From: an uncultured Clostridia bacterium
GTDB taxonomy: Bacteria > Bacillota > Clostridia > Christensenellales > UBA1242
NCBI GenBank assembly: GCA_934778205.1
Contig: CAKVOD010000001.1
Location: 59,037-123,036, forward strand
Length of the DNA stretch: 64,000 nucleotides
Direction: 5' to 3'
In this document: positions 1-56,154 of the stretch, piece after piece
Layout: each line of letters opens with the position of its first letter
Position numbering within the stretch: the first letter of the stretch is position 1
Translations under genes and position numbers: made by a program
The notes under the pieces: generated by a model
The model's database searches: none
What the model was told of the DNA's origin: nothing
Seen by the model: only the letters and a program-made list of their open reading frames with translations

Positions 1-224
1 TCGCGGGCGGGTATCAATACGCCGTCAGCACCAACCGTGAAGAACCTTGAGCGGTCGACCTTGTTGTTGTCGTCGCGCTCTCCATAGTACACGTCAAAGT
101 TTTCATTGTATTGTACTATCTCTATTCTATCGATATATCTATTGATTTTTACGTTTGCGGAATACTCACGTAATGTCTTTGTGCAAAACATTTGACTAAT
201 AGTTTTTAAATCTTTTTTATTCAT
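1..224 (-). CDS. Hypothetical protein, N-terminal part only (ORF runs off the left edge); occupies the slot held by the Rep gene in element B
   Basis: ATG at 224-222 preceded by AAGGAG. Open to position 1 (MNKKDLKTISQMFCTKTLREYSANVKINRYIDRIE...). No visible similarity to the element B Rep N-terminus, so function is unknown. Confidence 0.4.
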   Translation of the reverse strand, partial: MNKKDLKTISQMFCTKTLREYSANVKINRYIDRIEIVQYNENFDVYYGERDDNNKVDRSRFFTVGADGVLIPAR

Positions 225-268
225 AACTAACTCCTTGTTATGAATGATTTTTTATTCAATTGTCCGTT

Positions 269-349
269 AAGTGTTCCCTAAATCAAGTATGGGAACACTT
301 AGCAACACGGGGGCGCGCTGGGTAAACCATCGCGCGCCCCCGTGTTGCT
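269..349. other. Two adjacent perfect hairpins in the element A intergenic region (candidate origin or packaging signal)
   Basis: Hairpin 1 has stems 269-278/291-300 (aagtgttccc/gggaacactt); its loop on the coding (minus) strand reads ATACTTGATTTA. Hairpin 2 has a perfect 18-bp GC-rich stem 301-318/332-349 and a 13-nt loop, starting at the stop codon of ORF 348-596. Confidence 0.6.
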
Positions 350-596
350 ATAGTTTTATTCTTGCATTTTTTTCGAGTCTAGCCAATCGTTTATAATCTC
401 GCATATAGCGCTTATAAATTATTCGCTCTATCTTTTTGCGATATTTGTTGCGCATAGCAAATGCATTATCTGCCAAATCGTTGAAATCGTCATAATACGT
501 CATATTGAGTTTGGCAAACGCTTTCTTGTTACAATCATAATACTTGCGCTTTCGATTGAAAAATTTTAAAAATAATGCAAATAGTTTTAATTTCAT
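348..596 (-). CDS. Small basic hypothetical protein (element A)
   Basis: 82-aa ORF directly downstream of the Zot-like gene, with AGAGGT RBS. Positional counterpart of 60851-61333 in element B; sequence similarity is weak. Confidence 0.5.
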   Translation of the reverse strand: MKLKLFALFLKFFNRKRKYYDCNKKAFAKLNMTYYDDFNDLADNAFAMRNKYRKKIERIIYKRYMRDYKRLARLEKNARIKL

Positions 597-602
597 AGTT
601 AG

Positions 603-1409
603 TTACCTCTTTTTGTAGTAGGTTGATGGCACTGTCGTTGGGTTCTCCAAGTTAAATTGCTCTATAGCGACAACGCTATTATCTACTATGTGACTTAACT
701 GATATGTAAAATCACGTTCTTTAGCGTCTTTCAAATAATTTGGGAAGCAATAAAACGAGTTGTACATTTTGCGAATGTCGCCCTTATATACATACTTGTT
801 TGCTTTTCCCCCTTTTGTTTTGCCACTAGCAAGATAGTTATCATAATCAAAACAACTGTTAAATTCACGCGTGTGCCACGTCGTTTTGACGCACTCACCC
901 GCGCGATTCTCTTTGTACTCAATGCCCTGCACCTCTATGACCAACTCCATTAATTCACGGACGTTGGCGTCTAGCAGGTTGAGGCGTTGGCAATCAATGG
1001 CAAAGTTGCAACCATAGTGTCCGCCAGTTTCATAAAATTGACTGACAAAATCACTCAGCACAAATGACATACGGCTATTAAGCGGGCGCTGTCCCTCAGT
1101 AATGAAAAATTGTGCGTGCGGAGGAAATAGCAACGTCTTATGTTGAGGGTTAGGCAAACCCATATAAAATGGGTTGAATTTGTACGTCGGGAGAGTTCCA
1201 CGCTCATAACTATGCAATAATATGTCATAATTGCTATACACTACGTGACGTTTAGGCGGATAACTAAAGTTGTAGCCCCCGTCGTTTAGTTCTTTGATTT
1301 TGTGTATGCTATCTATGTAATGGCTGTCGTCTAACATACTTTGTATGGCAAAGTATGTCAAAAGCGCTGTTTTGCCCTTGCGAGGCAACCCACATATTCC
1401 TACTATCAT
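603..1409 (-). CDS. Zot/pI-like P-loop morphogenesis ATPase (inovirus assembly protein family)
   Basis: N-terminal Walker A MIVGICGLPRKGKTALLTYF and Walker-B-like FFITEGQ. Clearly homologous to 59913-60854 (SDFVSQFYE / SDFVSQLYE; IDCQR / LDCQR). AGGAG RBS. Confidence 0.75.
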   Translation of the reverse strand: MIVGICGLPRKGKTALLTYFAIQSMLDDSHYIDSIHKIKELNDGGYNFSYPPKRHVVYSNYDILLHSYERGTLPTYKFNPFYMGLPNPQHKTLLFPPHAQFFITEGQRPLNSRMSFVLSDFVSQFYETGGHYGCNFAIDCQRLNLLDANVRELMELVIEVQGIEYKENRAGECVKTTWHTREFNSCFDYDNYLASGKTKGGKANKYVYKGDIRKMYNSFYCFPNYLKDAKERDFTYQLSHIVDNSVVAIEQFNLENPTTVPSTYYKKR

Positions 1410-1455
1410 TAAGTTTGTACTCCTATTTTAGTTTGTACCCCATTTGCTAGATAAG

Positions 1456-1480
1456 CGGGCGAAGCGTATGGCTTCGCCCG
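1456..1480. other. GC-rich hairpin between the membrane-protein gene and the Zot-like gene
   Basis: Stem cgggcgaagc/gcttcgcccg (10 bp) with a 5-nt loop. Sits in a 208-bp non-coding stretch that also has ggcgcgg/ccgcgcc and ttgtcaagg/ccttgacaa inverted repeats. Element B has a hairpin at the equivalent place (59871-59890). Confidence 0.5.
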
Positions 1481-1617
1481 TCGTATCTATTATGGGGGAA
1501 TTGTTACGTATTGTCAAGGCGCGGGCATAATCGCTACGCTTTTATCCGCGCCAACAAAGTTGGCGCTCCCGCTTCTCCCTTGACAATCTCCACAATTCGT
1601 GCTTTGTATGTGTTGCA

Positions 1618-2277
1618 TTATTCGGCAACAACCATTGGCGCAAAGCGTAATTGTTCTATAGTGTTTATAACGGCGTCCGTATCATTAATACCTATTATTC
1701 CAATGTTGTAATATTTTGCACCAGTATTGTCTGTCTTTTTGTAATATTCAAGGTACGGTGACACGTGCACCACCATAGGCGTAGCCCAATCGACAGGCTT
1801 GATAACATACAATTGAGCGTTACCCATACCATAAGAACCAGAGGTTGTTGTCACTTGCCCTGAGTCGTTGGTTTTATATGTATCAATTATTGTTCCACCA
1901 ATCGAAAGTTTTGGAAACAATAATTTGCCATCACCAAAGTTCACAAAACGCAATTCAATATAGTCGTCACTCGTACATGTGGTCCCGCCGATGTTGCGTC
2001 CTTCTAATGAAATTTGCATATCATCGAAAACAGGTCCGTTTTGTCCCCAAGGTTTCCAATTTTGTATATAATTAATATCACTTTGCAATTCGTTATTGTT
2101 CTGCAAGAGTTCATCATATTGCGCTTGCAATTCTTCTAATTCGGCAGATTGTCCAGGCACTATGTCTTCGACACCATTGTTCTTGTTGTGTTTAAAGCCT
2201 CCAGTGGCAAACACGATACCCACAACAATCAACGCACAAATAATTACACTTAATATGCTTGTCAATACTCTATTCAT
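1618..2277 (-). CDS. N-terminally membrane-anchored protein (virion or assembly protein candidate)
   Basis: 219 aa with N-terminal TM segment ILSVIICALIVVGIVFA. Same position as 59249-59854 in element B, but no visible sequence similarity. Confidence 0.6.
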   Translation of the reverse strand: MNRVLTSILSVIICALIVVGIVFATGGFKHNKNNGVEDIVPGQSAELEELQAQYDELLQNNNELQSDINYIQNWKPWGQNGPVFDDMQISLEGRNIGGTTCTSDDYIELRFVNFGDGKLLFPKLSIGGTIIDTYKTNDSGQVTTTSGSYGMGNAQLYVIKPVDWATPMVVHVSPYLEYYKKTDNTGAKYYNIGIIGINDTDAVINTIEQLRFAPMVVAE

Positions 2278-2286
2278 AGTCCACCC

Positions 2287-3111
2287 CTATATGCTGTAAC
2301 TCCAGTTGTGATCGTCACATTGGGTTGATGTGCTATTGTACACGCCAATACAACTCATAACAAGTGGGTTGTTTACTTTTTCGCCCTTTGAGTTTGTAAT
2401 ATCAAAGAACTTTGACACGTCTACATTGACATTAATTGGCACGTCTTTGTCAATGTTGCTTACTGCATTGATTGCCGAAATTACAGCGTAATAGATGTAG
2501 CAGTTAACTTCCAACATATCGCGTTTTGGCGTTAATGTGTAATTAGCGCCACCAATATTGATAACCGCTTTTGTCTCGGTCATTTTACCCCATACACTCT
2601 CACTCATCTTCAAATAAGAAACAAATGCAGGGTTTTTCTTTGTAGTTCCAATACCTACGCAATTATTTGGCGCGTCAAAATATTGCACACTCATAATTGA
2701 TTTTTTGTCAGAAATGTTGTAATATACCACAATACCACCTGTACCGTTGGCACTCGTCGAAAATTGAATAAATGATTTATTGTCATATGGCGCTACCGCA
2801 TTGAGTAGGTCATTTGCCTTGAAACGTAACGCTTGTGAATAGTCAGTTACTACAGTATCGACGTTTTCATTGTCAGCAATGCCTTCCGATGGGTCGTACT
2901 TGGTGTTGTTGCCAGTTGAAGGCTCAATTACAGTGTCTTTGACTGTAACATCAATTTTGTTGTTGTCAAGATTTGGGTTCCATACGCCAGTTATGTAGCG
3001 CACGTCGTTGTCATTTTTGCTTTTAACTGAGTTAAAAACTGAAAAACCTATAATAATTGCTAATACTACACATATGGTAGTAATAAGTATTGTTTTAAAT
3101 TGTGAATTCAT
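2287..3111 (-). CDS. N-terminally membrane-anchored protein (putative adsorption or minor coat protein)
   Basis: 274 aa with TM ILITTICVVLAIIIGFSVF and AAGGAG RBS. Lies directly after the small hydrophobic ORF, in the position of the 673-aa protein of element B. Confidence 0.6.
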   Translation of the reverse strand: MNSQFKTILITTICVVLAIIIGFSVFNSVKSKNDNDVRYITGVWNPNLDNNKIDVTVKDTVIEPSTGNNTKYDPSEGIADNENVDTVVTDYSQALRFKANDLLNAVAPYDNKSFIQFSTSANGTGGIVVYYNISDKKSIMSVQYFDAPNNCVGIGTTKKNPAFVSYLKMSESVWGKMTETKAVINIGGANYTLTPKRDMLEVNCYIYYAVISAINAVSNIDKDVPINVNVDVSKFFDITNSKGEKVNNPLVMSCIGVYNSTSTQCDDHNWSYSI

Positions 3112-3130
3112 AATATCTCCTTATTAATTG

Positions 3131-3295
3131 TTAAAATAATTGTAATATACCGCTAAAGCCTGTCCAGTCTACAATCTTGGCAACCCACGTCAATGCGGTT
3201 GCCATTATTTTGAACACCCACGCCATAGCAGATATGATTGGCGGTCCAAATAAAACCACCAGTAAGACAAAGGCAAAAAAATTAAATATGTTCAT
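3131..3295 (-). CDS. Small hydrophobic protein, 54 aa (coat or membrane protein candidate); absent from the supplied ORF track
   Basis: Hand translation gives MNIFNFFAFVLLVVLFGPPIISAMAWVFKIMATALTWVAKIVDWTGFSGILQLF. Homologous to 56994-57188 (ATATRWLGKIVDWYGV vs ATALTWVAKIVDWTGF). The ATG lies 2 nt after the upstream stop. Confidence 0.65.
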   Translation of the reverse strand: MNIFNFFAFVLLVVLFGPPIISAMAWVFKIMATALTWVAKIVDWTGFSGILQLF

Positions 3296-3296
3296 A

Positions 3297-3617
3297 TTAA
3301 TAACTCCCATTGTCTATGTACTGCCCGTCCATTAGATAACACTTGTTGCTTGACTTGTGCTTGTCATAGAACGCCATTACTCGATTTTTTGTGTTTGTTG
3401 GTATTGTGTTTAAGTCCTGCAGGAACGAACGTTTTGTTGCACCAGTTTTGCGGTCCTTTGTGTTTTTGAACACAAACGGCACGTCTTTTGAAACGACACC
3501 AAACACACCCTTTTTTAGTTTCTTTGTACGTTTGTCATATGCAGCACTGCTACTAACAGCATACAAATTGTTTAAATTTTGTTTTTTCCTTTGATAATTT
3601 CGTTTTTTTTCTGTCAT
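3297..3617 (-). CDS. Basic hypothetical protein (element A)
   Basis: 106 aa, K/R-rich, with GGAGGTG RBS. Confidence 0.55.
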   Translation of the reverse strand: MTEKKRNYQRKKQNLNNLYAVSSSAAYDKRTKKLKKGVFGVVSKDVPFVFKNTKDRKTGATKRSFLQDLNTIPTNTKNRVMAFYDKHKSSNKCYLMDGQYIDNGSY

Positions 3618-3800
3618 ATCACTTTACACCTCCATATTTTTATGATATACTTACTTTGCATCCGTTGGGGTCACAAACGACCAAAGGAACAAGTACGTCT
3701 GTAGTTCCCGAGCGGAGTAAGTTAGGGTGCTGAAATATCGGCTGTGAGGCTCCGCAAGGTGTTGCATAATACAACACCTTTTTTTGTTGCCTCATAGAGG

Positions 3801-4154
3801 TTATTTGCTCAATGTTTTTGGCATTGGAAGTTGGCTATCAAACAACTTTTCAAAGGCAAGGCAACATTTGTTCGCTGTACTGCTCAAGTCGTCTAGTGAT
3901 ACATAGCATTTGACAACGTCTCCTAGTCGCAACGCGTCTACCGCTGTATCTAGTTCTTCAGGTACTGTGAGGCGTACAACCTCGCCAGAGCCGTAGCGGT
4001 TAATTTCCGCGACTTCGATATAATCAAATGTGCCACCACTCTTCCATTCGCCTTTGCGATGGGAAATAAAAAGTTTCGTGAACGGAAATGCGTTTTGCAT
4101 TGCCATTTCTTCTGCTAGTGTTAGTTTTGTTTCTTTGTTAATCTCATTTGCCAT
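3801..4154 (-). CDS. Hypothetical protein; positional counterpart of the SSB-like protein of element B
   Basis: 117 aa. Preceded by a conserved small overlapping ORF and followed by a structured non-coding region, as in element B. Lacks the IPF tail. Confidence 0.5.
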   Translation of the reverse strand: MANEINKETKLTLAEEMAMQNAFPFTKLFISHRKGEWKSGGTFDYIEVAEINRYGSGEVVRLTVPEELDTAVDALRLGDVVKCYVSLDDLSSTANKCCLAFEKLFDSQLPMPKTLSK

Positions 4155-4269
4155 AGTTTAGAATCTCCTTATAATTGCTAATTGTTATGATTTGTTTCTC
4201 GTTGTACTCTTTGTTTGTGCAGAGTCCTAATTTTTTTAGTGCGTTAAGTTTTTGCATTTTCAGTTCCAT
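4144..4269 (-). CDS. Small ORF, 41 aa, overlapping the start of 3801-4154; absent from the ORF track
   Basis: Reads MELKMQKLNALKKLGLCTNKEYNEKQIITISNYKEILNYGK with GGAG RBS. Counterpart of 56155-56274 (...KKYALEMLGLKKSTKG...), with the same overlap geometry. Confidence 0.4.
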   Translation of the reverse strand: MELKMQKLNALKKLGLCTNKEYNEKQIITISNYKEILNYGK

Positions 4270-4284
4270 TCTTTAATCTCCTTT

Positions 4285-4479
4285 TTAGAACAATGATTTT
4301 TTCTTTCTCGTCACATGTTGTTTACCAGCGTTGTAACTCTCAGCTACACGGCTATCAGGGTTGCGCAAACCTTGCTCAATCAAACCCCAGTTGAACGCCA
4401 TTTTTTCAACTTGCGTATACTTGCTTTTCTTGTAATTATTACGCTTGCCGTAATTGTTGTTGCGTCTACTATATGCCAC
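4285..4479 (-). CDS. Small highly basic conserved protein (64 aa)
   Basis: GTG start with GGAGG RBS. Homologous to 55509-55691 (EKMAFNWG..NPDSRVAESYNAGK vs EKLAFNMG..NPNSRVYESYKNGK). Confidence 0.65.
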   Translation of the reverse strand: MAYSRRNNNYGKRNNYKKSKYTQVEKMAFNWGLIEQGLRNPDSRVAESYNAGKQHVTRKKKSLF

Positions 4480-4560
4480 ATTCCACCTCCTTTGAAAAAA
4501 AGAGGAAATACCACGGGCTAAAAGTTAAAATGTGTTGAACCATGTATTCCTCCTTTTTAG

Positions 4561-4600
4561 TTATTAAGCGTAATTTATCCGCGGTGCGCTCAGCCCGCAA
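4561..4600 (-). other. Non-coding block conserved at nucleotide level between elements A and B (candidate cis-acting site)
   Basis: The reverse complement reads ttgcgggctgagcgcaccgcggataaattacgcttaataa. Compare 55199-55238, ttgcgggctgagcgaaccgcattataaattacacttaggg. Both lie immediately after the stop of the 244-aa gene. Confidence 0.55.
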
Positions 4601-4603
4601 ATA

Positions 4604-5335
4604 TCATTTGACTACTTTGAGTCGTTTTTTTGTTGTGCTTATCTTGAGCCCAAACTCCTTGACAAGCAAGTTTTTGACACAATGCAAGTTTGCAACTACA
4701 ATGTCCTTGAGTTCGTCGGGCTTTGTTTGCGCAAAGTCCATACCATTAAACAAGTCGATATACGCAACGATTGCGTCGTATGTTTCGTGACGTTCTGCAA
4801 CGTCGGGTGTTGTGGCTTGTTGTTTTTCGTCGTCCTTTTCGATTGCCTCTTCTACCTTGTTGCTGTTCTTTGTTGCCTTGAACGCTTTGACCCATTCCCG
4901 CAACTGCTTTTGCGTCATGTTCGGGCTAATGTCACCACGGTCAAAGGCGTCTCGCACGTCATTAAATGCAATAGGCAACAATTCAAATATTTTTGTTAGT
5001 GGCATACAATCCAACTCAGCGATAAGCCAAGAAAGCGTTTTTTGCCCGTTTGGTGCGTCAACGCACCTAGCAAATCGCTCATAAACTAGATATAATCTTT
5101 TTACTGTTGTTTCGCTCAGTCCAAGATAGAACGAGCAAAATGTTATATAATCAATTTTTGCGCCGTCTTTGGCGTATATGTTTTGACGTGTACCATATGC
5201 GGAAAAGTTGATAAACTTGCTCAAAAACTCCAAGTCAAGTTGGCTACGTCGCCATATCACTTGCCTGAGTTCGTCATACTCTCTTTGCACGTCATCAAAC
5301 AGGAACTTAAAGTCCTTGCAATATAAATCATTCAT
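4604..5335 (-). CDS. Conserved element protein (244 aa), function unknown
   Basis: Homologous along its length to 54460-55194 (MNDLYCKDF; LSETTVKRLYLVYERF / LSESTVKKLYLTYERF; ISPNMTQKQLREWVKAFK / ISPNMTVKQLRDYVKAFK). The ATG at 5335 overlaps the end of the upstream ORF. The track start at 5350 is a TTG. Confidence 0.7.
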   Translation of the reverse strand: MNDLYCKDFKFLFDDVQREYDELRQVIWRRSQLDLEFLSKFINFSAYGTRQNIYAKDGAKIDYITFCSFYLGLSETTVKRLYLVYERFARCVDAPNGQKTLSWLIAELDCMPLTKIFELLPIAFNDVRDAFDRGDISPNMTQKQLREWVKAFKATKNSNKVEEAIEKDDEKQQATTPDVAERHETYDAIVAYIDLFNGMDFAQTKPDELKDIVVANLHCVKNLLVKEFGLKISTTKKRLKVVK

Positions 5336-5624
5336 TGTCGGTACCCCCAACGCTGAAACTAATACTTGTAGTCTCTAATGACTCCAATATGTAACTCACT
5401 TGCGAGTCCCAACAGTCAAACGCGTCATACTCATCCCAGCCGAATGAGACGGTTATGTGGTCTATAAGCGCATGTACTAGACAATTTAATTCGTCGCGGT
5501 TCAATTTGTCCAACTCATCCCAAAATTTGCCACTGTCTAATTTTTTATAGATTTCACTTTGTTCACGCTGCTTCTTTTCTATTCGGTCAAGTAGTGTTAT
5601 TTCTTCATTTTCTTTTTGTGTCAT
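5328..5624 (-). CDS. First ORF of the element A rightward-equivalent operon, hypothetical
   Basis: 98 aa with AAGGAGG RBS. Shares the MTQKEN N-terminus and position with 54089-54463. Confidence 0.55.
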   Translation of the reverse strand: MTQKENEEITLLDRIEKKQREQSEIYKKLDSGKFWDELDKLNRDELNCLVHALIDHITVSFGWDEYDAFDCWDSQVSYILESLETTSISFSVGGTDNE

Positions 5625-5776
5625 TGTCGTTGCCTCCTTGTTTTGCTAAATAATGTTATTAACTTTATTTAACGATGCTAGTATATCACTAACAAATTTT
5701 AGTGTCAAGCGTTTTGACTAACTTTTTTTAATTTTTACTAATTTTTTTTAGGAATATTAACTTTTTTTAATAATTG

Positions 5777-5794
5777 TGTTATAATTTATATATG
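5777..5794 (+). promoter_or_regulatory. Extended -10 promoter placed for a leaderless repressor mRNA
   Basis: TGtTATAAT at 5777-5785, then 6 nt, then the ATG at 5792. No Shine-Dalgarno between them. Confidence 0.45.
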
Positions 5795-6070
5795 GAATTA
5801 AAAGATAAGATAAAAGAATTAAGGAAAGAACACGGCTTAAGCCTTGAAAAATTCGCACGTTTAATAGATGTGTCGGATGTCGCTGTCCTTAAATGGGAAC
5901 AAGGAAAAACAGAACCAAAAGCAAGCAACCTCAAAGCAATAGCAGTTGTATTTAATGTGGACCTAATGGATTTCCTCGAAATTTACGAAGCACAAAATAA
6001 TAATAAAAGTCAAAATATACAAATTAACAACTCATTTAATGGGAACGGAAACAATAAAATTACTTTTTGA
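5792..6070 (+). CDS. XRE/Cro-CI family HTH repressor (element A)
   Basis: MELKDKIKELRKEHGLSLEKFARLIDVSDVAVLKWEQGKTEPKASNLKAIAVVFNV is a typical HTH_3 pattern. Divergent from the structural operon. Confidence 0.8.
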   Translation: MELKDKIKELRKEHGLSLEKFARLIDVSDVAVLKWEQGKTEPKASNLKAIAVVFNVDLMDFLEIYEAQNNNKSQNIQINNSFNGNGNNKITF

Positions 6071-6079
6071 GGTGTACAA

Positions 6080-6562
6080 ATGAAAAATTATATTAAAATA
6101 GTTCTTGTCACATTACTAATCGTCACAATATGTCCTTTGTTTGTTGCCTGCGGAAGTGCAGAGCAAAAAGAAACTCAGTTATATAACTATGGCAAAGAAA
6201 TTGAGCATTGGGGAATTACTACTCAACGCAATCAAAACACTATACTTGCCGACAACACAAAAACTAACTTTATTGTCATTTTGACATTTTATAATTTGTT
6301 TGACACCAACCGTACCTTGCGCATTACTGACTTTGAAATTAAGGTCGATAACAAATTTATCGACATACTTGAATTAAACGGCAGTCAAAATGATATAATT
6401 TGCTACGGCAACGACTCAGTATATATAAAACTAAAAACCGAAGAAGTTACAATCGACAACACCAAATACACTCTATATTTTAAAAATAATTTGGTCGGAC
6501 AATTTAGTTACAATTTGGGCTGGATAACCGCTGGAAATACCATATACCAACCAACACTATAA
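6080..6562 (+). CDS. Lipoprotein (lipobox LFVAC), function unknown; occupies the slot of the integrase in element B
   Basis: MKNYIKIVLVTLLIVTICPLFVACGSAEQ signal/lipobox with GAGGTG RBS. Lies downstream of and co-oriented with the repressor. Confidence 0.7.
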   Translation: MKNYIKIVLVTLLIVTICPLFVACGSAEQKETQLYNYGKEIEHWGITTQRNQNTILADNTKTNFIVILTFYNLFDTNRTLRITDFEIKVDNKFIDILELNGSQNDIICYGNDSVYIKLKTEEVTIDNTKYTLYFKNNLVGQFSYNLGWITAGNTIYQPTL

Positions 6563-6570
6563 TAAAAAAA

Positions 6571-6596
6571 TTACTAATAACCAAAGTTATTAGTAA
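6571..6596. terminator. AT-rich hairpin after the lipoprotein gene
   Basis: Stem ttactaataac/gttattagtaa (11 bp) with a 4-nt loop. The A-run upstream gives a T-run on the minus strand. Confidence 0.35.
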
Positions 6597-6620
6597 AGAA
6601 AATCAATCATTTGGGCGCCC

Positions 6621-6665
6621 CTGTTAACCGATAGGTCGTAGGTTCAAATCCTACTCGAGGAGCCA
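6621..6665 (+). other. 3' half of tRNA-Asn(GUU), anticodon loop to CCA: att-type remnant bounding element A
   Basis: Reads CTGTTAA (loop, anticodon GTT) - CCGAT - AGGTC - GTAGG TTCAAAT CCTAC (T arm) - TCGAGGA - G - CCA. The U1/A72-type acceptor and G73 fit tRNA-Asn. The 5' anticodon-stem partner, D arm and 5' acceptor are absent upstream, so this is a fragment. Confidence 0.7.
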
Positions 6666-6671
6666 AGATAA

Positions 6672-6702
6672 CCCAGTACCTGCTTTGGTACTGGGATTTT
6701 TG
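6672..6702 (+). terminator. Rho-independent terminator after the tRNA-Asn fragment
   Basis: Stem cccagtacc/ggtactggg followed by attttt. Confidence 0.6.
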
Positions 6703-6770
6703 CTTCTATTCTAGCATTTTGACCCGTAATCACATTTGCGCGACTCGAGATAGGCACGCATTGCGTGAAT

Positions 6771-6789
6771 AATCCTACTCGAGGAGCCA
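6771..6789 (+). repeat. Second, shorter copy of the tRNA-Asn 3' end (degenerate att remnant)
   Basis: aatcctactcgaggagcca is identical to 6647-6665. Upstream similarity (gatagg) is degenerate. Confidence 0.6.
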
Positions 6790-6795
6790 AAACAA

Positions 6796-6826
6796 CCCGA
6801 AAGTCTAGTACTTTCGGGCTTTTTGC
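6796..6826 (+). terminator. Rho-independent terminator after the second tRNA-Asn 3' remnant
   Basis: Stem cccgaaagt/actttcggg followed by cttttt. Confidence 0.6.
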
Positions 6827-7027
6827 TTGTATTAGTTTTCCTCCAAATTAATCGCTACATATTACAAAAATTGTTTAATAAAATATGCAAATACGATTAT
6901 TTATGCAACCTCCATTATTTATGTCGATAAATGTCCAAATTCTTAATGAAGATAATAATTAAAAAAAATTCTGCTTGACTATTTATATTTGAGTATGATA
7001 TAATGCTAAAAGTGCTAAGGAGGAAAT

Positions 7028-7658: not shown

Positions 7659-8264
7659 TCATTGGGATTCGCGACTAGTTGTATTTTCGTTTGCCATAAT
7701 TTTTTGCGCTAGGGAGTCGAGGTCAATTTCAGCGACGCGGACAATAAAGTCCGCAAGTTGCTGCTCACTATAGAGCCACGGCGCGTCTTTGATTGCACAT
7801 TTGCCGTACTTTTCTTCAAGCGCGGAAACTTCGGAATGTTTATTTTTATAGTTTACCTTAAATGTTTTTGTCACAAACTCAAGCGTACAGTCATAGTCGT
7901 GGTAAAAACACCCTTTGATTTTTCTATCGTGCGTGTCATAATAGTTTTGCAGCACGTCAAAATTAATGAAGTCATTATAATACAAGAGATCAGTTACTAA
8001 ATGCAAAAAATAGCCCTTATCATAGTCAGTAATTATTGTATTGCAAGCAAGATATTTCTCAAGATGCGTTTTGTTGCCTAAGTTATCTTTCAGCGGCGTA
8101 CTTTCGTCAACTTTGTCGCCATAGTGTGTGACGTAACTATTATTCTTTTCCCAACTCAAAACATCGGGCGCGACAGCACCCCAAATAAAGTCGTCCAAAT
8201 CCTGCACTTTGTGGCGCTTTGCCCACTCTTGCGCAACCGCGATATGAACTGTCAAATTTGCCAT
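7659..8264 (-). CDS. Hypothetical protein (possibly a metal-dependent hydrolase or phospholipase-C-like fold)
   Basis: Start chosen at MANLTVHIAVAQEW (AAAGGA RBS). The longer track ORF would overlap cwlD. His/Asp-rich motifs (HIAVA, HLVTDLLYY) give only weak functional support. Confidence 0.5.
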   Translation of the reverse strand: MANLTVHIAVAQEWAKRHKVQDLDDFIWGAVAPDVLSWEKNNSYVTHYGDKVDESTPLKDNLGNKTHLEKYLACNTIITDYDKGYFLHLVTDLLYYNDFINFDVLQNYYDTHDRKIKGCFYHDYDCTLEFVTKTFKVNYKNKHSEVSALEEKYGKCAIKDAPWLYSEQQLADFIVRVAEIDLDSLAQKIMANENTTSRESQ

Positions 8265-8314
8265 TCCTTTCGTCCTTTTCTCATTAGAATTATACAGCTT
8301 TTCACTAAGTTTTG

Positions 8315-9010
8315 TCAAGCAACAACTGCAAGTAGCGCCGACGCAATGCAAAGGCAAATCTTTTTTTGATATTCGGTTGTTGTCAAAAGCCGTTCTTCCT
8401 CAGGGTTTGACAGAAACCCGCACTCGACCAATATTGACGGCTTGTCAATACACTTGAGTATATACAAATCGCCTGCCTGCGCCTCGGCACGCGCTGAATC
8501 AAGTTGTTTTTTGAAAATTTCTTGCAGTGTTTCGGCAAAAACTTTCCCAGTACCCTTTTCGTCATCATAAAAAACTTGCGCGCCGTGCGATGTACTTGCT
8601 GAGTACTTGTTCATATGAATACTAATCACGGCATCCGGATTTGTCGCCACAATAATTTCCTTGCGCTTGTTCATATCCTCGCGCTTGAATCCGTTTTTGA
8701 ACTGACTATACAACCCGTCCTTCGTGCTACGCGTCATAACTACATTGACGCTGTATTCTTCCAAAACTCCTTTCAACATTTGGCAGTACTTCAAATTGAG
8801 GTCGCTTTCAATCGTTCCATTCGCGCCCACCGCTCCAACATCAATTCCTCCGTGCCCCGCGTCAAGCACAACCGTCAGCGCGCGTTGAGGAATCGCATTC
8901 GATGCCACCATTTCGCCACGCAAAAAAACACTTACACACGCGACAAAAACAAGCACCGCCACACACAAAAAAACTATGTTTTTTTTCATATTCGCCATTC
9001 CGCACCACAC
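8315..9010 (-). CDS. cwlD: N-acetylmuramoyl-L-alanine amidase, Amidase_3 / CwlD-like
   Basis: VVLDAGHGGIDVGAVG, NPDAVISIHMN, SILVECGFLSNPEE motifs with an N-terminal signal/TM. The true start may be the internal MKKNIVF (8989). Confidence 0.85.
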   Translation of the reverse strand: MWCGMANMKKNIVFLCVAVLVFVACVSVFLRGEMVASNAIPQRALTVVLDAGHGGIDVGAVGANGTIESDLNLKYCQMLKGVLEEYSVNVVMTRSTKDGLYSQFKNGFKREDMNKRKEIIVATNPDAVISIHMNKYSASTSHGAQVFYDDEKGTGKVFAETLQEIFKKQLDSARAEAQAGDLYILKCIDKPSILVECGFLSNPEEERLLTTTEYQKKICLCIASALLAVVA

Positions 9011-9205
9011 AATAATGTTTTATCAATTTATCGCGCCTTTCAAACGCAATTTATCAATTTATTATATTGCTATAATCACCAGAATATGAGTCGCAAATAG
9101 TTTAGAAAATATGTTTTATTAAATAAAAAATTTTAGTTAAGCACTTTACAAAAACTCTTGTATATTATACACAAAACTGTGGTAAAAGCACCTTAAACAA
9201 CCAAG

Positions 9206-18752: not shown

Positions 18753-21700
18753 TCACTCGCCTTGCGGTTCGGTTGCAACGACAGTTAGCGTCCCACTAAT
18801 GCAACTTATATCGTAATTGTCGTTATTTTTTGTGATTGTAATTGTTATTTCGTGCGTACCAACTGTCGTTTCAGCGCAAGAAAGTTCAAACTGAATGTCG
18901 TCATTCAAAATGCTGTCGCCTGAAATTGTATACTCAAATTTTGGCGTTTGCCCTTCGGTAATTTCAAGGTTAGTTGCAGTGATTGTAAGCACGCGTTTTG
19001 TAATTACAAGTGTTCCACTTTCAATTGTCACATTAAAGTGGTCACTTGTATTTTGTAGAGTTGCAGTGATTTCATATTCGCCCACATTTTCGCCTGCGGT
19101 GCGCGTATACGTCAAAACGATTTCATCGCCGTCCAAAAGTTGATCGCCCTCATCAAGTTTTGTGAAACTAAATGTCGGGTCGACTTCGCCATATTTTTTG
19201 ATGGCGTTGTCAATTTTAACTTTGTACTCGCGCGCCATAATTTCATACTGAGCGCCGTTGATTGTCACGTTGTAGTTGTGTTTATCGTCCTTTTCAGCAG
19301 TTGTACAAACAATATCATAGGTGCCGACCGCTGTTTCTTCGCCCAAAACAAGGATATACAAGTTTGACGGGTCTTGCAAAAAGACTTCGTCCGTTCCCTC
19401 GCCAAAACTGCAAGTAAATTCTTTTTCTTCGCCATACTTAAATTTCTTTGCATCTAAGTTTATGATGACATCTGCTTGTTTGATAGTGAGTTTTGCACCG
19501 TCGCAAATGATTTTGTAGTTCTCACTGCCCTCACTTTCAATGAGTTCAAGATTGATTGTTTGTTCGCCAACATCTAGTGACATGACAACATAACGGAATT
19601 TTATGTTGTGCGCAAGTTTACCCTTATCCACAATCGTTTCTACCTTTGGCGCCACTTTGTGCCCATAAATTATTTCGCTATCTTCAATCGTCGCAACTAT
19701 TTCGGCTTGTTTGACGGTTAATTTCCCCTCATCAATTGAAACGACGTAGTTATTTTTTCCTTCGGGTAGCACGGGATTTATGACAATGCGATACTCGCCA
19801 ACGGTATTTGGATATCCATTCATTTCGTTGCCTGCCATATCATAGTAATGATACTCAAAACTTACTTTGTCCGCATTCGGGTTTTCGGACAAATACTGAC
19901 TACCTGCTTTATACTGTATTTCCCACGAAAAACTATCCCCATAATAAACTTCTATATCCTTTGCTTTCAGCAAAATATACGCTTCGCGAATTTCAAGTGT
20001 TCCTTTTGAAAACTCAATTTCGTAATTTGGAACTTCCGCTTTAAGCGACGCGGTTATGTCATATTCTCCGACGTCGTTTTCCCACGGCAAGTTTACAGCA
20101 ACATTGCTCAAAATGTTGATATTTTCAACATTGGGGTCACTCTTTTTCTCGTTCAAAACGCAAGTTATGTTAGTGGAGTCAGGGTTTTGGTAGTATGCCA
20201 TTGATAGTGAGCCGATATTGTAATATAAATACCTTTTTCTTATTGTCAAAACGCCTGTTTCTGTCGAAATTGTGTAGTTTTTGTCCTCTTTAGTGATTTC
20301 AAGCGAAACAGTGTATGTTCCAACGATAGTGCCTTCAGGTCGCGTGAAATTGAATTGCAAACTGTTATCCTCTTGCAATGGGTCACCTTGTGGGTCAACT
20401 GTAAATGTGTAATTTGGCTCAGGGTCTGCATAAGGAATCGTGACATCGTCCACTTTAAGCGTTACAAGCGCTGGCGTGATTGTAAAAATTCCTTCTTCTG
20501 TGTTTATGATATAATTTTTCTTTTCTTGAGTGCCTTTAGGCGTTATTATGTATGAACCGACGTCTTCGCCCGCGCTCCTTGCAAGTAAAATTTGAACTTC
20601 GCCCTCAACTGGCAAATCGTAAATTTCCGATTCAAATTTATAAGTAAATTCTGGGTCATTTTGCCCATATCGTTTTGTTGCTTCTTCCGCAATTACACAA
20701 ATTTCACGACGATTTATATTGAGAGTGCCTTTAACAATGTTCAAGCGGTAGTTTTTGAGGTTAACATCACAAACGGCATTGATTGTATACTTGCCTGCGT
20801 CCTCGCCTTCCTCGCGAACTAAATTAATCTCAATCGCGTCGTCATAGAACAATTTTGAGTGGTCGGTTGTGTTTTGTGAATTATATAGTGTGTATGAATA
20901 CTCTGGCTCGTCAAATTTATATGTTTTTTCTGCATTCGCAACCGTAATGGTCAAATTTGCTTGCCATACATTGACTCTTGCATTGTTGTATGTCAACTCG
21001 TAGTCATTTGTCGTTGCGGTGCAACTCAAATTGTAAAGCCCCGCATCGCGCAAGTCCTCAGGGTATTCAATAGTGATGCCCAAATCTTCCATCGTGTCGT
21101 CGTTTTTCAGCCCGATGACGCTATAACTAATTGCGCTGGGCGTACAACCATAATAAAAAGATGAAACACTAACATTAACCTGCGCACTTGCTTTGCGAAT
21201 GTAGAAATTGCCTTCAATGAACTTTACGTCATAATTTGTAGCATTTTCGCCACTTGCAACAAATTTTTGCGATTCGATTATTTTATAATTTCCCGCTCTT
21301 TCGCCTACTTCACGTGAAAGGTCACCAGAAATTACAACGCCCTCGTCGTAAATTTGCCCCTCAATTCGTTTTGTGAGCGCAACATCACTTGCGCCATAAA
21401 CTTTTTCCTTGTTGTCGGCTTTGACTTCAATCGTTTGTGGTTCTATGACAAGCGTAACAGTGCTTTCGCCGACATAGTTTGCCGTGTTTACAGATGCTTT
21501 GACCATATAGGTGCCAGCGTCAGTTGGCGGAGTGGTAGTTGCGACAGATTCGCCTTCTTTTATATATTCATAAACTACATTATCATAGTCGTTTGTGACT
21601 TCAACCGCTTGTGGTGTTGCATTGTAGGTGCGCGTAATAACACCATTGATTGCTTCGCCAAAACGCAAGTTTAGCGAACCCGTTGTAATTTCAAACGTCA

Positions 21701-51949: not shown

Positions 51950-52362
51950 AACACTACTCACTCACATAATTACAATAAAAACTAGACAACCAAACTAGTT
52001 CGGTTGTCTAGATACTGATACAAGCAATAATGACTAAAAATTTTTATTTATTCAACCCCAATATTTGATAAAGTGCCTGTAATAATCAACTTTTTTGAAA
52101 GTAAAATCCAATAAAACAACTCCAAATGAAAGTCACAAAAGCGAAACAAGCCACTTTTGATAAGCAACTTGTTTGGGTTGTAAAATCTATAGGTTGTATA
52201 ATAAATAGGTTGTATAATAAATATTAGGTTAGGTAAAAAAATAAAAGTCGAGCAATCTAAAGTCTACTTTAGATTCCTCGAACTGTCTTGCAAAAAAAAT
52301 GTGACTTAGTGAAAATCAATGTTCGTCACATTCATTTTTGTTGTGCGTATCCGTGCAATTTA

Positions 52363-52407
52363 TGGTGCGTCCTAAGAGATTCGAACTCCTGACCTTTGGT
52401 TCCGTAG
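52363..52407 (-). repeat. att direct repeat: displaced 3' portion of tRNA-Arg(ACG)
   Basis: tggtgcgtcctaagagattcgaactcctgacctttggttccgtag is identical over 45 nt to 62754-62798. Sequences diverge immediately on both sides. Confidence 0.95.
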
Positions 52408-52482
52408 TTCTTCTCTCGACGCACTTTTTGTCTCGAATATACTATTGTATATTCGTTTTTTTTTAAATGTGTTGTCTCATTT

Positions 52483-53472
52483 TTATTTTAGGTCAAAATT
52501 AATATTATTAAATTGTTCAATTGCTTTTTGGTTTTGCCCTTTGTCGTACTTGATATAATACTTTTGCGTCGTTTGCACGTCCGAATGCCCCATCCATTGT
52601 TGGATGACTAAGTCGTCTATTTCCATTTTATGCGCAAGCGTTGCAAATGTTGTGCGAAAGTCTTTGACTGAAAAAGTTATTCCTGTTCTTTGTTTTATGT
52701 CCACTATTTCACGTTTAAGCGTTGAGTCTGATACATTGAATACAAACTCAGTTTCTTTGCTTTGCCCCTCTAACAATGCTTTGACTTTGCTAAATAATGG
52801 CATATACCTGTCGGAACTAATGCGTTTTGTTCCCGGTATATGTATTGTATTTGTCTCGAAGTCAATATCATTCCATTTGATTGACAGCGCTTCAGTTTTT
52901 CTGCAACCTGTGTATAAGTAAAACAAAAACAAATTTCTAACTTTTTTTCTAGCACAATTATTTAATATTAATCTAATTGTATTGTCATTTAGCGCTTTTC
53001 CCTCTTTAGGTCTATGCACGACGGGTTCTACCATATCTGCAATATTTTTGTCAATTAATTCAAGCCGATATGCCTTTCTCAGACAATCACCCAAAATTAC
53101 ATACGCTGTTCGACGTTGTTTGCTCGAATTAATTTTACTTAGCGTTTTGTCTATGTCATATACTCGCAATTCCTTTAACGGGATGTTTTCAAAATTCGAC
53201 TTTATGTGTACTTTGATTACACTTTTCATTGTTCTAATGCTACTTTGCTTTAGTTTTGGTAGCTTATAAGTGTTGTACCACTCATCAAGCCATTCAAATA
53301 AAGTTATGTCGTTTTTCATAAATTGCTCCTTACTTGTGCAATTTATGTCGTTACAAATTTCCCCTTTGTAATCTTTAATGTTGTAAACAATTGCATCATC
53401 TTTTACTAACCTCAGGGCTCTTGACTCCTCTAGCCCCTCGATATAAGCGTCCAAATATACAATTTGTTCCAT
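52483..53472 (-). CDS. int: Tyrosine-type site-specific recombinase / phage integrase
   Basis: 329 aa. ...YTGCRKTEALSIKWNDID..., ...DFRTTFATLA..., ...WMGHSDVQTTQKYY (catalytic Tyr box). Confidence 0.88.
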   Translation of the reverse strand: MEQIVYLDAYIEGLEESRALRLVKDDAIVYNIKDYKGEICNDINCTSKEQFMKNDITLFEWLDEWYNTYKLPKLKQSSIRTMKSVIKVHIKSNFENIPLKELRVYDIDKTLSKINSSKQRRTAYVILGDCLRKAYRLELIDKNIADMVEPVVHRPKEGKALNDNTIRLILNNCARKKVRNLFLFYLYTGCRKTEALSIKWNDIDFETNTIHIPGTKRISSDRYMPLFSKVKALLEGQSKETEFVFNVSDSTLKREIVDIKQRTGITFSVKDFRTTFATLAHKMEIDDLVIQQWMGHSDVQTTQKYYIKYDKGQNQKAIEQFNNINFDLK

Positions 53473-53561
53473 TATGTTTTTAATGTTTTTTTAAGTTTTC
53501 AAATTTTTCCGTATCAATTACCATACCTTTCTCCTCTTTTTACCCCTTGCGGGGCTTAGTA

Positions 53562-53921
53562 TTAGTAATTGAATTTGTTTTTACTTTCGGTATTTTGAAT
53601 AGACTTTGTAAGTCGATTGTCAATAAGTCCTTGCATATAGCCTTTTACTTTAATTTTTTCAATGTCGCTTAGACTATTGAACATTTTTAACATTTCATTT
53701 TCTTCTGTTGTTGGTTCATTTTTTTCATTTACTTCATCTATTAAATACTCGATTTTCACATTAAATAAATTTGCAATTTTTTTGAGCATTTCTAAATTTG
53801 GTTCCGTAGTTCCAACTTCATATGATGAATATGTGGTTTGTGCAATGTTTAAGTAATCCGCTACTTGCTTTTGACTTTTGTTTCGTTCTTTTCTCAAACT
53901 TTTCAATTTTTCTTGTAGCAT
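53562..53921 (-). CDS. XRE/CI-type HTH repressor (element B)
   Basis: MLQEKLKSLRKERNKSQKQVADYLNIAQTTYSSYEVGTTEPNLEMLKKIANLFNV. Divergent from the structural operon. Confidence 0.85.
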   Translation of the reverse strand: MLQEKLKSLRKERNKSQKQVADYLNIAQTTYSSYEVGTTEPNLEMLKKIANLFNVKIEYLIDEVNEKNEPTTEENEMLKMFNSLSDIEKIKVKGYMQGLIDNRLTKSIQNTESKNKFNY

Positions 53922-53936
53922 AAATAAATTTTACCA
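53919..53936 (-). promoter_or_regulatory. Extended -10 promoter placed for a leaderless repressor mRNA
   Basis: On the minus strand: TGgTAAAAT (53936-53928), then 6 nt (ttattt), then the ATG at 53921. No Shine-Dalgarno. Confidence 0.45.
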
Positions 53937-53940
53937 TATA

Positions 53941-54070
53941 TTTTGTTAAAAGATAGATAAAAAATTAAAAAAATTAACAAAAAGAGTGTTAAAATAGTTG
54001 CTTTTTAACGTTTTTTTTGTTAAAATAGCGTTGTAACGAAAAATATGTTAGCATTTAACGATATTTTCGC
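53941..54070. promoter_or_regulatory. Operator-like repeats in the divergent control region of element B
   Basis: TGTTAAAATAG occurs exactly twice (53987-53997, 54018-54028; 31 bp apart), plus TGTTAAAAG at 53944. Inverted repeat gttaaaa/ttttaac, and near-perfect inverted repeat cgaaaaatat (54037-54046) / atattttcg (54061-54069). Confidence 0.5.
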
Positions 54071-54088
54071 TAAAAAGGAGACACAAAA

Positions 54089-54463
54089 ATGATGACACAA
54101 AAAGAAAATCAAAAATTCGCAGATGATTTTGCATTTGACTTTAGTAACAATTTTGATGAACTAAAAAAACGTTTAGATGATTGCGCTGTAGCTCTGATAT
54201 TCAACACCTTTGAAGAATATGAGGTATTCCGCGACGAATGCAACCGATTGAAAGAACTCGAGCAATCGCAAATAAAGCAAATTAAAGAGCTTAAACAATC
54301 GCAAAAACAACTTGCGTATGACGAATTATGGCATATATTGTTTAATTTTGATATGTATGCAGATGAAACAAATAATACTATGGTAAGCGTTGATTCCGAC
54401 GGTATGTGCATACAAGATTACATTCTTGCTAGACTTAGAGATTTTTGGGGGTACCGACAATGA
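54089..54463 (+). CDS. First ORF of the element B operon, hypothetical (acidic, coiled-coil-like)
   Basis: 124 aa with AAGGAG RBS. Shares the MTQKEN N-terminus with 5328-5624. Confidence 0.6.
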   Translation: MMTQKENQKFADDFAFDFSNNFDELKKRLDDCAVALIFNTFEEYEVFRDECNRLKELEQSQIKQIKELKQSQKQLAYDELWHILFNFDMYADETNNTMVSVDSDGMCIQDYILARLRDFWGYRQ

Positions 54464-55194
54464 ATGACTTATATTGTAAAGACTTTGAGTTCTTAAACAA
54501 AGAGAATCAAAAAGCATATGACAATCTCAAACAAACTATACTTAAGCGCAGTCGGCTTGACTTGGAGTTTCTACAAAGGTTTATACAATTTTCGTCAAAG
54601 GCCTTTTGTTCTATTCAATTTATTTGCGTGCGCAGTTCTGGCGTATATGCAAAGGATGATACACGCATTGGTGCGATTAATTTTTGTGCCGATTATTTAG
54701 GACTTAGCGAAAGTACAGTTAAAAAACTATATCTAACATATGAACGCTTTATCATTGACAAGTTCGACGTCGAACTTTCAAACGAAAAAACGTTTTCTTG
54801 GCTTGTTCCTGAGTTCAACGATATGTCATTGACAAAGATATTTGAGTTGCTTTCGATTTCGTATAATCAGTTAAACAAAGATTTTGAGAAAGGCACTATT
54901 TCGCCAAATATGACAGTTAAACAGTTGCGCGATTATGTCAAAGCATTCAAGGACGGAAACGCCCTTGCCGAAAAAGTGCTTGAAGAACACGCCGACAAGG
55001 ACGAAGAACCGGAAGAACAACCGACCGACTATTCGCAGTGTCGCAAAACATATGACAAGATTATTTCGTATATTGACTTTTTTAAGTCAACGGAAGAAAC
55101 TGACCCCGTACAACTAAAAAAATTGTTTGTAACTGACTTGCATAGCATCAAAAATGCGCTTATCAAAGAATTTGGGCTTGAAATAGACAAATAA
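54460..55194 (+). CDS. Conserved element protein (244 aa), function unknown
   Basis: ATGA overlap with the upstream stop. Homolog of 4604-5335 (see that entry). Confidence 0.7.
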   Translation: MNDLYCKDFEFLNKENQKAYDNLKQTILKRSRLDLEFLQRFIQFSSKAFCSIQFICVRSSGVYAKDDTRIGAINFCADYLGLSESTVKKLYLTYERFIIDKFDVELSNEKTFSWLVPEFNDMSLTKIFELLSISYNQLNKDFEKGTISPNMTVKQLRDYVKAFKDGNALAEKVLEEHADKDEEPEEQPTDYSQCRKTYDKIISYIDFFKSTEETDPVQLKKLFVTDLHSIKNALIKEFGLEIDK

Positions 55195-55198
55195 GCCC

Positions 55199-55238
55199 TT
55201 GCGGGCTGAGCGAACCGCATTATAAATTACACTTAGGG
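55199..55238 (+). other. Non-coding block conserved with element A (candidate cis-acting site)
   Basis: ttgcgggctgagcgaaccgcattataaattacacttaggg matches the reverse complement of 4561-4600 at most positions, with one 1-nt indel. Confidence 0.55.
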
Positions 55239-55508
55239 GGTACGGAGACAACCACCATCGTGTTAAATTTGTGTCATTACCTCCCCTGAAACTAATGCAA
55301 TCGCGTTTGTTTTTCTCCTTTTGTGTTTATTTACTTCAAATTGTACTCTTAAAAATAATGTAACTCATTCCCATTTCTAAACAAACGCGCGGGCTGGGTG
55401 TCCCGATAACACGCCCACCATACACCCTGTTGGGTGGAAATCTTGCAAGATTGACAATGTGCCGTAGCGATTAAGACAAACAAAAAAAATAAATTATGAG
55501 GTGAAAAA

Positions 55509-55691
55509 ATGGCGTATTATAAAAGACGCACACAACGCAAAAAAAAGTCGAACAGAACAGAACTTGAAAAACTTGCATTTAATATGGGCAAAGTAGAACG
55601 CGGGCTAAATAATCCTAATAGCCGAGTATATGAGTCGTACAAAAATGGCAAAACTGGTAAAACGTCTAGTAAGAGAAAACCATTGATTTAG
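55509..55691 (+). CDS. Small highly basic conserved protein (60 aa)
   Basis: GAGGTG RBS. Homolog of 4285-4479. Confidence 0.65.
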   Translation: MAYYKRRTQRKKKSNRTELEKLAFNMGKVERGLNNPNSRVYESYKNGKTGKTSSKRKPLI

Positions 55692-55692
55692 T

Positions 55693-56019: not shown

Positions 56020-56154
56020 AAAAAAGGGAAATTCAATACCCGAGCTGTGTTACCACAAGATGTCGACTTAACGACCATTTGAATTTCCTAGTACATTATA
56101 CACTAAAAAACAAATATTGTCAAGAGTTTGACAACAAAAAAAGGAAGGTAAAAA

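Follow-up and report, generated by a model that had tools for sequence, protein, structure and literature searches.

Inoviruses of 6.5–8.5 kb that are secreted have been described in gut Clostridia (PMC10061712), and replication and integration genes are the ones most exchanged in inoviruses (PMC6813254). Here, we analyze a 64,000-nucleotide (nt) stretch of the genome of an uncultured Clostridia bacterium (contig CAKVOD010000001.1), referred to below as the window. At the left edge of the window lies a prophage, element A, and a second inovirus-like element, element B, occupies positions 52363–62798. Element A is probably an intact, mobile, temperate prophage of the inovirus-like, i.e., filamentous-phage, type, its host being an uncultured gut bacterium of the class Clostridia. 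This type of element is already known, gut Clostridia inoviruses of similar size having been described, and A adds a new member from a little-catalogued lineage.

The Enterocloster inoviruses (PMC10061712) and members of the catalogue of Roux et al. 2019 (PMC6813254) share with element A a size of 6.5–8.5 kb, a Zot- or pI-like ATPase, and flanking direct repeats. Like element A, these Clostridia inovirus prophages exist as chromosomal prophage and circular form, have human-gut Clostridia as hosts, and treat Rep and integration genes as exchangeable modules. Element A differs from them in its ATPase, which is short (about 270 amino acids, aa) and lacks a membrane segment, and in a specific 248-aa protein; further, pattern scans of IMG/VR with alignments of the 248-aa protein and of Zot returned zero relatives. 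In GenBank, a matching ATPase occurs in a single phage record, bajarodino virus 12 (PQ006185), which is a circular Inoviridae genome of 9.8 kb from rodent faeces. It resembles element A in its short Zot (266 aa) without a hydrophobic segment and in having an integrase and a repressor. Unlike in A, its int lies beside the repressor, as in B, and the relatedness to A was seen for the ATPase only.

Among the classical filamentous phages, M13 (and the Ff phages generally) shares with element A the gene order SSB (single-stranded-DNA-binding protein), small coat proteins, adsorption protein, membrane protein, and assembly ATPase. Also in common are a gene II-type rolling-circle Rep of the HUH class (PF23343) and a hairpin-rich intergenic region beside rep. 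In contrast to element A, M13 does not integrate, and its pI has a membrane segment and pairs with the pIV secretin; the M13 rep comes first, whereas that of A is second to last, before int. The repressor, integrase, and cargo of element A are absent from M13. The CTXphi-type phages are, like element A, temperate, with a divergent RstR-like helix-turn-helix (HTH) repressor and a Zot-like ATPase. CTXphi integrates at dif by means of the host XerCD. Such Xer/dif integration without an integrase of the phage's own was not found in element A, which, unlike CTXphi, encodes a tyrosine integrase and has its attachment (att) sites in a tRNA gene. The best NCBIfam match of its repressor is phage_RstR (1.7e-13), at a score below the cut-off of that model (50.7 vs 80 bits).

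Element A spans 8,522 nt, about 78% of which is covered by window positions 1–6674 (Table 1). The open reading frame (ORF) listing gives a compact minus-strand array from 5624 to 348 in the gene order of element B, as a preliminary description of the window had proposed, with a divergent plus-strand HTH gene and a putative lipoprotein gene beyond it. A further minus-strand ORF, starting at 224, is truncated by the left window edge. The exact element A ATPase protein is carried by 15 public contigs, and one of these, L001 (ENA ERZ28613859 scaffold_33, 293 kb), matches the window at 100% identity across 11,409 nt and reaches further left. Leftwards on L001, the edge ORF is a Rep gene, and it is followed by a tyrosine integrase gene and then by an intact tRNA-Asn(GTT), called by ARAGORN at L001 13267–13341, i.e., about 1.86–1.93 kb left of window position 1. 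Thus, the Rep gene and the intact tRNA-Asn(GUU) that had been expected beyond the left edge were both found there. In the window, the sole ARAGORN tRNA is the tRNA-Arg at 62754–62830, and none is called in the element A part.

The integrase, IntA, is a 298-aa tyrosine recombinase (PF00589, 5e-26; phrog_1, 2.5e-52) with the R...HxxR...Y residues visible in its sequence. Its gene overlaps the 3′ end of rep by 23 nt and is separated from the tRNA-Asn by 194 nt on L001. The preliminary description, having seen no integrase at the expected place, had offered a location at the other end of the element, dependence on a recombinase in trans, or immobilization; the first of these is what was found, and the second is unnecessary, as element A has its own IntA. 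The adjoining Rep shows the HFH and YxxK motifs, and the family that it matches, phrog_3419, is that of rolling-circle initiation.

When closed into a circle, element A reads as follows: the 'MTQKEN' ORF, the 248-aa protein, the basic 64-aa protein, a 41-aa ORF, the SSB-like protein, the basic 106-aa protein, the KIVDW protein, A274, A219, the Zot-like ATPase, A82, rep, int, and attP, and then, in the opposite orientation, the lipoprotein and the repressor. The circular map of B runs from the MTQKEN ORF to the ATPase, B186, rep, B110, and attP, and then, in the opposite orientation, int and the repressor. Therefore, int adjoins attP, as is usual, in both elements, on the rep side in A and on the repressor side in B.

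The gene content is of the inovirus type. That is, there is a Zot-like ATPase, an HUH Rep, an SSB-like protein with an OB fold, a small hydrophobic protein, and two anchored proteins, with nearly all genes on one strand. The pI/Zot-like morphogenesis ATPase expected of an inovirus is recognized through phrog_197, through PDB 2r2a (7.8e-4 in a profile search), and through 28% identity (E 9e-22) to the Zot annotated in PQ006185, the circular inovirus record. In the SSB slot, A117 models with an OB fold similar to that of single-stranded-DNA-binding proteins: when the predicted structure was compared with PDB by Foldseek, the best matches were almost all SSB or PriB OB folds, and 6cqo is matched with an E of 2.7e-4 and TM scores of 0.55/0.69. 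PADLOC matched A117 to a methyltransferase model (6e-5); the OB-fold result was preferred to this. Two membrane-anchored proteins had been noticed before, and A274 and A219 indeed have one N-terminal hydrophobic anchor each; by position, A274 matches a pIII-like adsorption protein, and A219 a pVI-like protein or an assembly partner. The KIVDW protein is the single small hydrophobic protein at the expected position, which makes it a candidate major coat protein, although it has no basic C-terminus and no homology to a known coat family in Pfam or PHROGs.

The two ends of element A are marked by an exact direct repeat of 54 nt, which starts at the first anticodon-loop base (CTGTTAA) of the tRNA-Asn and ends 9 nt past the CCA. 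The fragment at 6621–6665, running from the anticodon loop CTGTTAA to the CCA, had been recognized previously as a tRNA-Asn 3′ half. It is identical to the last 45 nt of the intact tRNA, as proposed, and the exact repeat is longer than had been thought, reaching to 6674. Rfam gave only a weak T-arm match (15.7 bits) on 6400–7000; a 3′ half cannot score as a tRNA, and therefore the fragment was checked by its identity to the intact gene. The repeat of element B is also exact and consists of 45 nt of the tRNA-Arg 3′ end (52363–52407 and 62754–62798). The crossover geometry is, as had been claimed, the same in both elements, as both repeats start at the first anticodon-loop base. IntA and IntB, which use this same tRNA sublocation, are homologous (32% identity, 8e-45).

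An empty attB is found in contig L026 from a related bacterium, the flank of which is 84% identical: there, the tRNA-Asn runs directly into the same downstream units and right-hand genes. (Contigs L007, L008, and L010 end inside the repeat and are uninformative on the empty site.) At the level of the att sites, it is shown that the element's own IntA recombined the phage attP, extending from the anticodon loop to the CCA plus 9 nt, with the tRNA-Asn(GUU) gene. The same sites show that the tRNA was rebuilt at attL and that the displaced host 3′ half was left at 6621–6674. Element A thus fits the tRNA anticodon-loop class of integration, in that int lies beside attP, the repeat runs from the anticodon loop to the 3′ end, the tRNA is restored, and a relative has an empty attB. 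This sublocation class of tyrosine-recombinase prophages is reportedly part of the classification of Williams 2002.

Circular junctions of element A, envisaged in the preliminary description, were found in metagenomes. Four samples yielded contigs (L020–L023) in which the lipoprotein end is linked to the int end through the 54-nt core, with up to 1.16 kb of int and rep sequence past the junction. Two contigs of the Hadza sample ERZ4560629, L004 and L021, share 77-nt overlaps at either end and together close a circle of 8,522 nt, a size within the range of about 4–12 kb used to define small circular genomes of this kind. The closed circle is either the attP form or a head-to-tail tandem, and it is shown that a circular or head-to-tail form is present in natural samples. 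From the junction contigs, the closed circle, and the empty attB together, element A looks mobile; the suggestion that it is immobilized is contradicted by the attP-type junctions.

Two host strains, represented by L001 and L002, carry prophages that are 99.86% identical, and the adjoining host DNA is 98.0% identical and has in addition a 2.2-kb ABC-transporter indel. The low divergence of the prophage (0.14%) against that of the host flank (2%) fits recent spread. The scan of genome contigs yielded three loci only, each in a metagenome-assembled genome of an uncultured Clostridia bacterium.

A number of points weigh against the inovirus assignment. The ATPase of element A does not reach the Pfam Zot threshold, and that of B is borderline. 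One or two transmembrane segments have been demanded for a genuine pI (Roux et al. 2019, PMC6813254), and ZotA has none on the Kyte–Doolittle scale. No protein of element A matches a known major coat protein family in Pfam or PHROGs, and no excisionase was identified in the element. The junction contigs could equally be explained by head-to-tail tandem prophages. The functions given to the origin, operator, and lipoprotein are assigned from position only, and the filamentous single-stranded-DNA virions that element A would make are presumed.

The missing membrane segment was judged over 19 residues on the Kyte–Doolittle scale, a crude scale that was read against M13 pI as a control, since a cut-off of 1.6 or more would miss that protein. 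The maximum for ZotA is 0.77, versus 1.31 at residue 254, the known membrane segment, for M13 pI, and only 3 of 141 relatives attain 1.3 past residue 30. Among 1.84 billion representatives, a profile search gave 404 relatives, 108 of them at E ≤ 1e-30, with a median length of 271 aa among the best 150. Judged from sequence, then, the ZotA clade is short and without a membrane segment comparable to that of M13 pI. ZotA and ZotB (603–1409 and 59913–60854, respectively) fall into one clade, which numbers about 400 clusters at 50% identity.

An ATPase of this kind could serve something other than filament assembly, and element A might accordingly be an integrative rolling-circle plasmid or a mobilizable island with no virion of its own. 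We regard this as unlikely, though it is the strongest of the alternatives. It would accommodate the lack of a membrane segment in the ATPase, the lack of a recognizable coat protein family, the absence of IMG/VR relatives in the pattern scans, and the Rep of element B, which is of the plasmid type Rep_1. It would not account for the inovirus-like order and sizes of the SSB, small hydrophobic, large anchored, anchored, and ATPase genes. In addition, the nearest annotated relative is an Inoviridae genome, and in a related prophage, L011, the KIVDW protein, the adsorption-like protein, and the anchored protein are swapped together as a cassette, as expected of a host-recognition or structural module. 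With element A read as a filamentous-phage-type prophage, we tentatively raise the possibility, which we hold to be somewhat less than even, that A and B belong to a sizeable clade of filamentous phages from gut Clostridia, one largely missed by inovirus catalogues. In this clade, the assembly ATPase would be short and soluble, and a separate anchored protein would supply the membrane part. If true, this would be a split version of pI/pXI suited to a cell without an outer membrane.

It is highly improbable that element A is a defective, immobilized remnant or an element that needs a recombinase in trans. The window itself holds no integrase for it, and extra fragments of tRNA 3′ ends at the right boundary look like scars. 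In contrast, the L001 extension places an intact int with its R...HxxR...Y residues beside the tRNA, all ORFs of element A are intact and are identical in at least five contigs, and attP junctions occur in four samples, with a circle that closes. As for the apparent scars, the right flank after the core contains a terminator hairpin (6672–6695), a 19-nt copy of the tRNA 3′ end (6773–6791), and a second terminator (6796–6818). In alignment, a 124-nt unit made up of the terminator hairpin and the 19-nt tRNA copy is shared by L026 and the two att sites of L011, and it is cleanly missing from the int-proximal arm of phage A. Because the unit occurs in the empty site, it represents native sequence downstream of the tRNA-Asn rather than a further element boundary. 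The 124-nt unit is thus, by alignment, native host sequence, a copy of which is carried by some phages of the lineage. The 19-nt copy at 6773–6791 had been considered as the scar of another element with a T-loop-specific integrase, and this was rejected, as it is part of the unit found at both L011 att sites and in the empty site.

One or more such units of about 124 nt follow the tRNA-Asn in tandem in the window (6675–6834), in L011 (844–1066 and 10982–11204), and in L026 (2334–2734), and the phage A arm is short of exactly one. The units are either old integration scars or a native duplication.

Element B (int, repressor, plus-strand array, rep, and tRNA-Arg) was compared with A in gene order at 54089–62674, and homologous pairs were sought by all-against-all BLASTP. 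Significant matches link five pairs: the Zot-like ATPases (39% identity, 9e-53), the 248/249-aa proteins (50%, 4e-73), the basic 64/60-aa proteins (56%, 6e-8), the KIVDW proteins (39%, 1e-6), and the HTH repressors (30%, 9e-8). Weak similarity is seen for A82/B186 (6e-4) and for A219/B201 (6e-4, in the N-terminal anchor only). BLASTP found no significant similarity for the MTQKEN ORFs (A98/B124), A117/B145, A106/B108, or A274/B673, which share position only; the match between the MTQKEN ORFs is confined to the first eight residues (E 2.4). Thus, the homology claimed previously holds for the five pairs and is one of position for the MTQKEN ORF, the SSB slot, A106/B108, and A274/B673. The small overlapping ORF noted in both elements was recovered in each, with an overlap of 11 nt: the counterpart of A41 in B is a 39-aa ORF (56155–56274) overlapping the gene in the SSB slot. 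The co-linearity of A and B is real, with about half of the gene pairs homologous by BLASTP. Rep belongs to different families in A and B, RepA being of the G2P type and RepB of the Rep_1 type with a zinc-binding domain, and the two are unrelated by BLAST.

That A and B reside in one genome and have related ATPase, KIVDW, 248-aa, and basic proteins might suggest that element A is a satellite using the structural or assembly proteins of B, which we regard as barely credible, since A itself encodes the full set of Rep, Int, SSB, ATPase, and anchored proteins and is found both on contigs and in circular form in samples with no shown link to B.

The prophage L011 (JBNMHN010000010.1, 2253–11234), also in tRNA-Asn, is a natural recombinant. 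Its backbone is of the A type, with A41, SSB, A106, ATPase, A82, Rep, and Int at 90–99% identity, and its cassette is of the B type, with KIVDW at 95%, B673 at 81%, and B201 at 60%. L012 is B-like, yet it has a G2P-type Rep and lies with its Int beside tRNA-Thr. The Rep and Int swaps in L011, in L012, and between A and B match the exchange published for inoviruses (PMC6813254). To summarize the lineage, the ATPase, the 248-aa protein, the basic protein, and the KIVDW protein are kept, and the Rep family, the adsorption cassette, the SSB, the int side of attP, the target tRNA, and the cargo slot are swapped. A, B, and L011 together give a clean map of conserved and exchanged parts, the exchange of replication and integration modules having already been described for inoviruses. 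The value of element A is that of a fully delimited, apparently active, and annotated 8.5-kb example that points to a poorly catalogued clade, rather than of a new principle.

What lies between the repressor and attP differs from one element to the next. In this slot, B has int and A has the lipoprotein gene; L011 encodes a 272-aa protein there, L012 encodes a 147-aa membrane protein, and L014 carries a Rep_1 gene. The preliminary description had noted a lipoprotein gene in A where B has int, and the hydrophobic N-terminus and LFVAC motif of the product bear this out. The lipoprotein of element A thus occupies a variable cargo slot; its only match among 5.8 billion proteins searched is its own cluster. 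In L014, which is a B-like relative, the Rep_1 replication gene in the cargo slot (7917–9028) is on the repressor strand. L012 has a direct repeat of about 317 nt (8665–8981 and 19315–19632) consisting of the int 3′ end, the arm, and the 3′ part of the tRNA-Thr, and this leaves a partial copy of int beside the repressor, at the opposite end of the L012 prophage.

We propose the following life cycle for element A. In the lysogen, the divergent long operon would be silenced by the RstR-like repressor, the gene of which would be co-transcribed with that of the lipoprotein, and the lipoprotein would act as a lysogen-expressed cargo, possibly for superinfection exclusion. Upon derepression, Int would excise the circle, and the HUH Rep would nick the origin, which is probably the conserved hairpin upstream of rep. 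The single-stranded DNA made by rolling-circle replication would be coated by the OB-fold protein. Finally, the Zot-like ATPase and the membrane-anchored proteins would extrude a filament whose coat consists of the small hydrophobic protein.

The best origin candidate is the double hairpin that separates the A82 gene from rep; it may be a replication origin or packaging signal and might serve as a terminator as well. Folded as DNA, it has an energy of −40.1 kcal/mol (z = −10). Both hairpins are kept in L011 (8825–8960), and the second is kept in L012 (17585–17725) with a compensatory change in the stem, upstream of the G2P-type rep. The loop of the second hairpin is similar in L012, a distant relative (TACTTGAT / TACTCGAT). 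Neither hairpin is found upstream of the Rep_1 gene of element B.

In the region between the repressor and the long operon, two promoters are predicted by a consensus scan, with 11/12 and 10/12 matches and an extended −10 TG in both. The repressor ATG lies 7 nt past the predicted −10 hexamer (5780–5794), which suggests that the repressor transcript may be leaderless or near-leaderless. The repressors of A (6030–6070), L011 (1950–2000), and L012 (9501–9550) have in common a C-terminal tail, NSFNGNGNN(N)KI(T/D)F, and their HTH domains are only about 29–35% identical; the repressor of element B is without this tail.

Table 1. Features of element A and its right flank in window coordinates.
Feature	Position	Strand	Evidence and remarks
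rep (first 74 codons in window)	1–224	−	Full 337 aa at L001 11186–12199; PF23343 REP_ORF2-G2P 2e-11; phrog_3419 7e-13
Double hairpin between A82 gene and rep	271–350	−	Perfect 19-bp G+C-rich stem and 10-bp stem
A82, basic, 82 aa	348–596	−	Weakly similar to B186; 93% identical in L011
Zot-like (pI-like) P-loop ATPase, 268 aa	603–1409	−	phrog_197 'Zot-like toxin' 4.5e-8; presumed assembly/extrusion motor
A219, N-terminal membrane anchor	1618–2277	−	Hydrophobic residues 1–30
A274, N-terminal anchor	2287–3111	−	Hydrophobic residues 2–31; slot carries B-type cassette in L011
KIVDW small hydrophobic protein, 54–59 aa	3131–3310	−	Hydrophobic; 39% identical to B67; called as 54 aa in L002
A106, very basic	3297–3617	−	24 K/R among 106 residues; 97% identical in L011; no family match
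A117, OB-fold, SSB-resembling (predicted)	3801–4154	−	AlphaFold pLDDT 72.6; Foldseek PDB matches
A41, small ORF	4144–4269	−	11-nt overlap with SSB gene start; 90% conserved in L011
A64, basic, 64 aa	4285–4479	−	56% identical to B60
Lineage-specific 243–248-aa protein	4604–5350	−	50% identical to B249
A98, acidic 'MTQKEN' ORF, first in long operon	5328–5624	−	67% identical in L011
Divergent promoter region (predicted)	5680–5785	.	P(−) 5708–5680 for phage operon; P(+) 5757–5785 for repressor
HTH (XRE/RstR-like) repressor	5792–6070	+	PF01381 2e-15
Lipoprotein (putative), ORFan	6080–6562	+	9 nt 3′ of repressor gene; hydrophobic N-terminus, then LFVAC (fits lipobox rule, read by eye)
attR core	6621–6674	+	3′ 45 nt of tRNA-Asn(GTT) plus 9 nt; 100% identity to L001 13311–13258
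Native host sequence 3′ of tRNA-Asn, outside phage	6675–6834	+	Alignment with L011 att sites; empty site L026

Pfam, NCBIfam, PHROGs, and PADLOC return nothing for A82, A219, A274, A59, A106, A64, A248, A98, or the lipoprotein. The family of the 248-aa protein comprises only 25 clusters among the 5.8 billion proteins, none of them named or with a Pfam domain. Sequence searches of PDB with this protein were empty or insignificant, and its AlphaFold model (pLDDT 75) has no Foldseek match below an E of 0.8, the nearest being winged-helix repressors and Noc at low probability. From this weak evidence of fold, the protein may bind DNA. In the SSB slot, the C-terminal ends of B145 (DDEHIPF) and of its L012 counterpart (DDEDLPF) resemble what we take to be an SSB C-terminal tip, and A117 is without such an end.

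To the left of the tRNA-Arg fragment of element B (52137–52362), a terminator-like sequence at 52137–52175 is 79% identical to 62702–62740, downstream of the intact tRNA-Arg. Between this sequence and the tRNA-Arg fragment, the short direct repeat AGGTTGTATAATAAAT occurs twice, a layout that recalls the right boundary of A.

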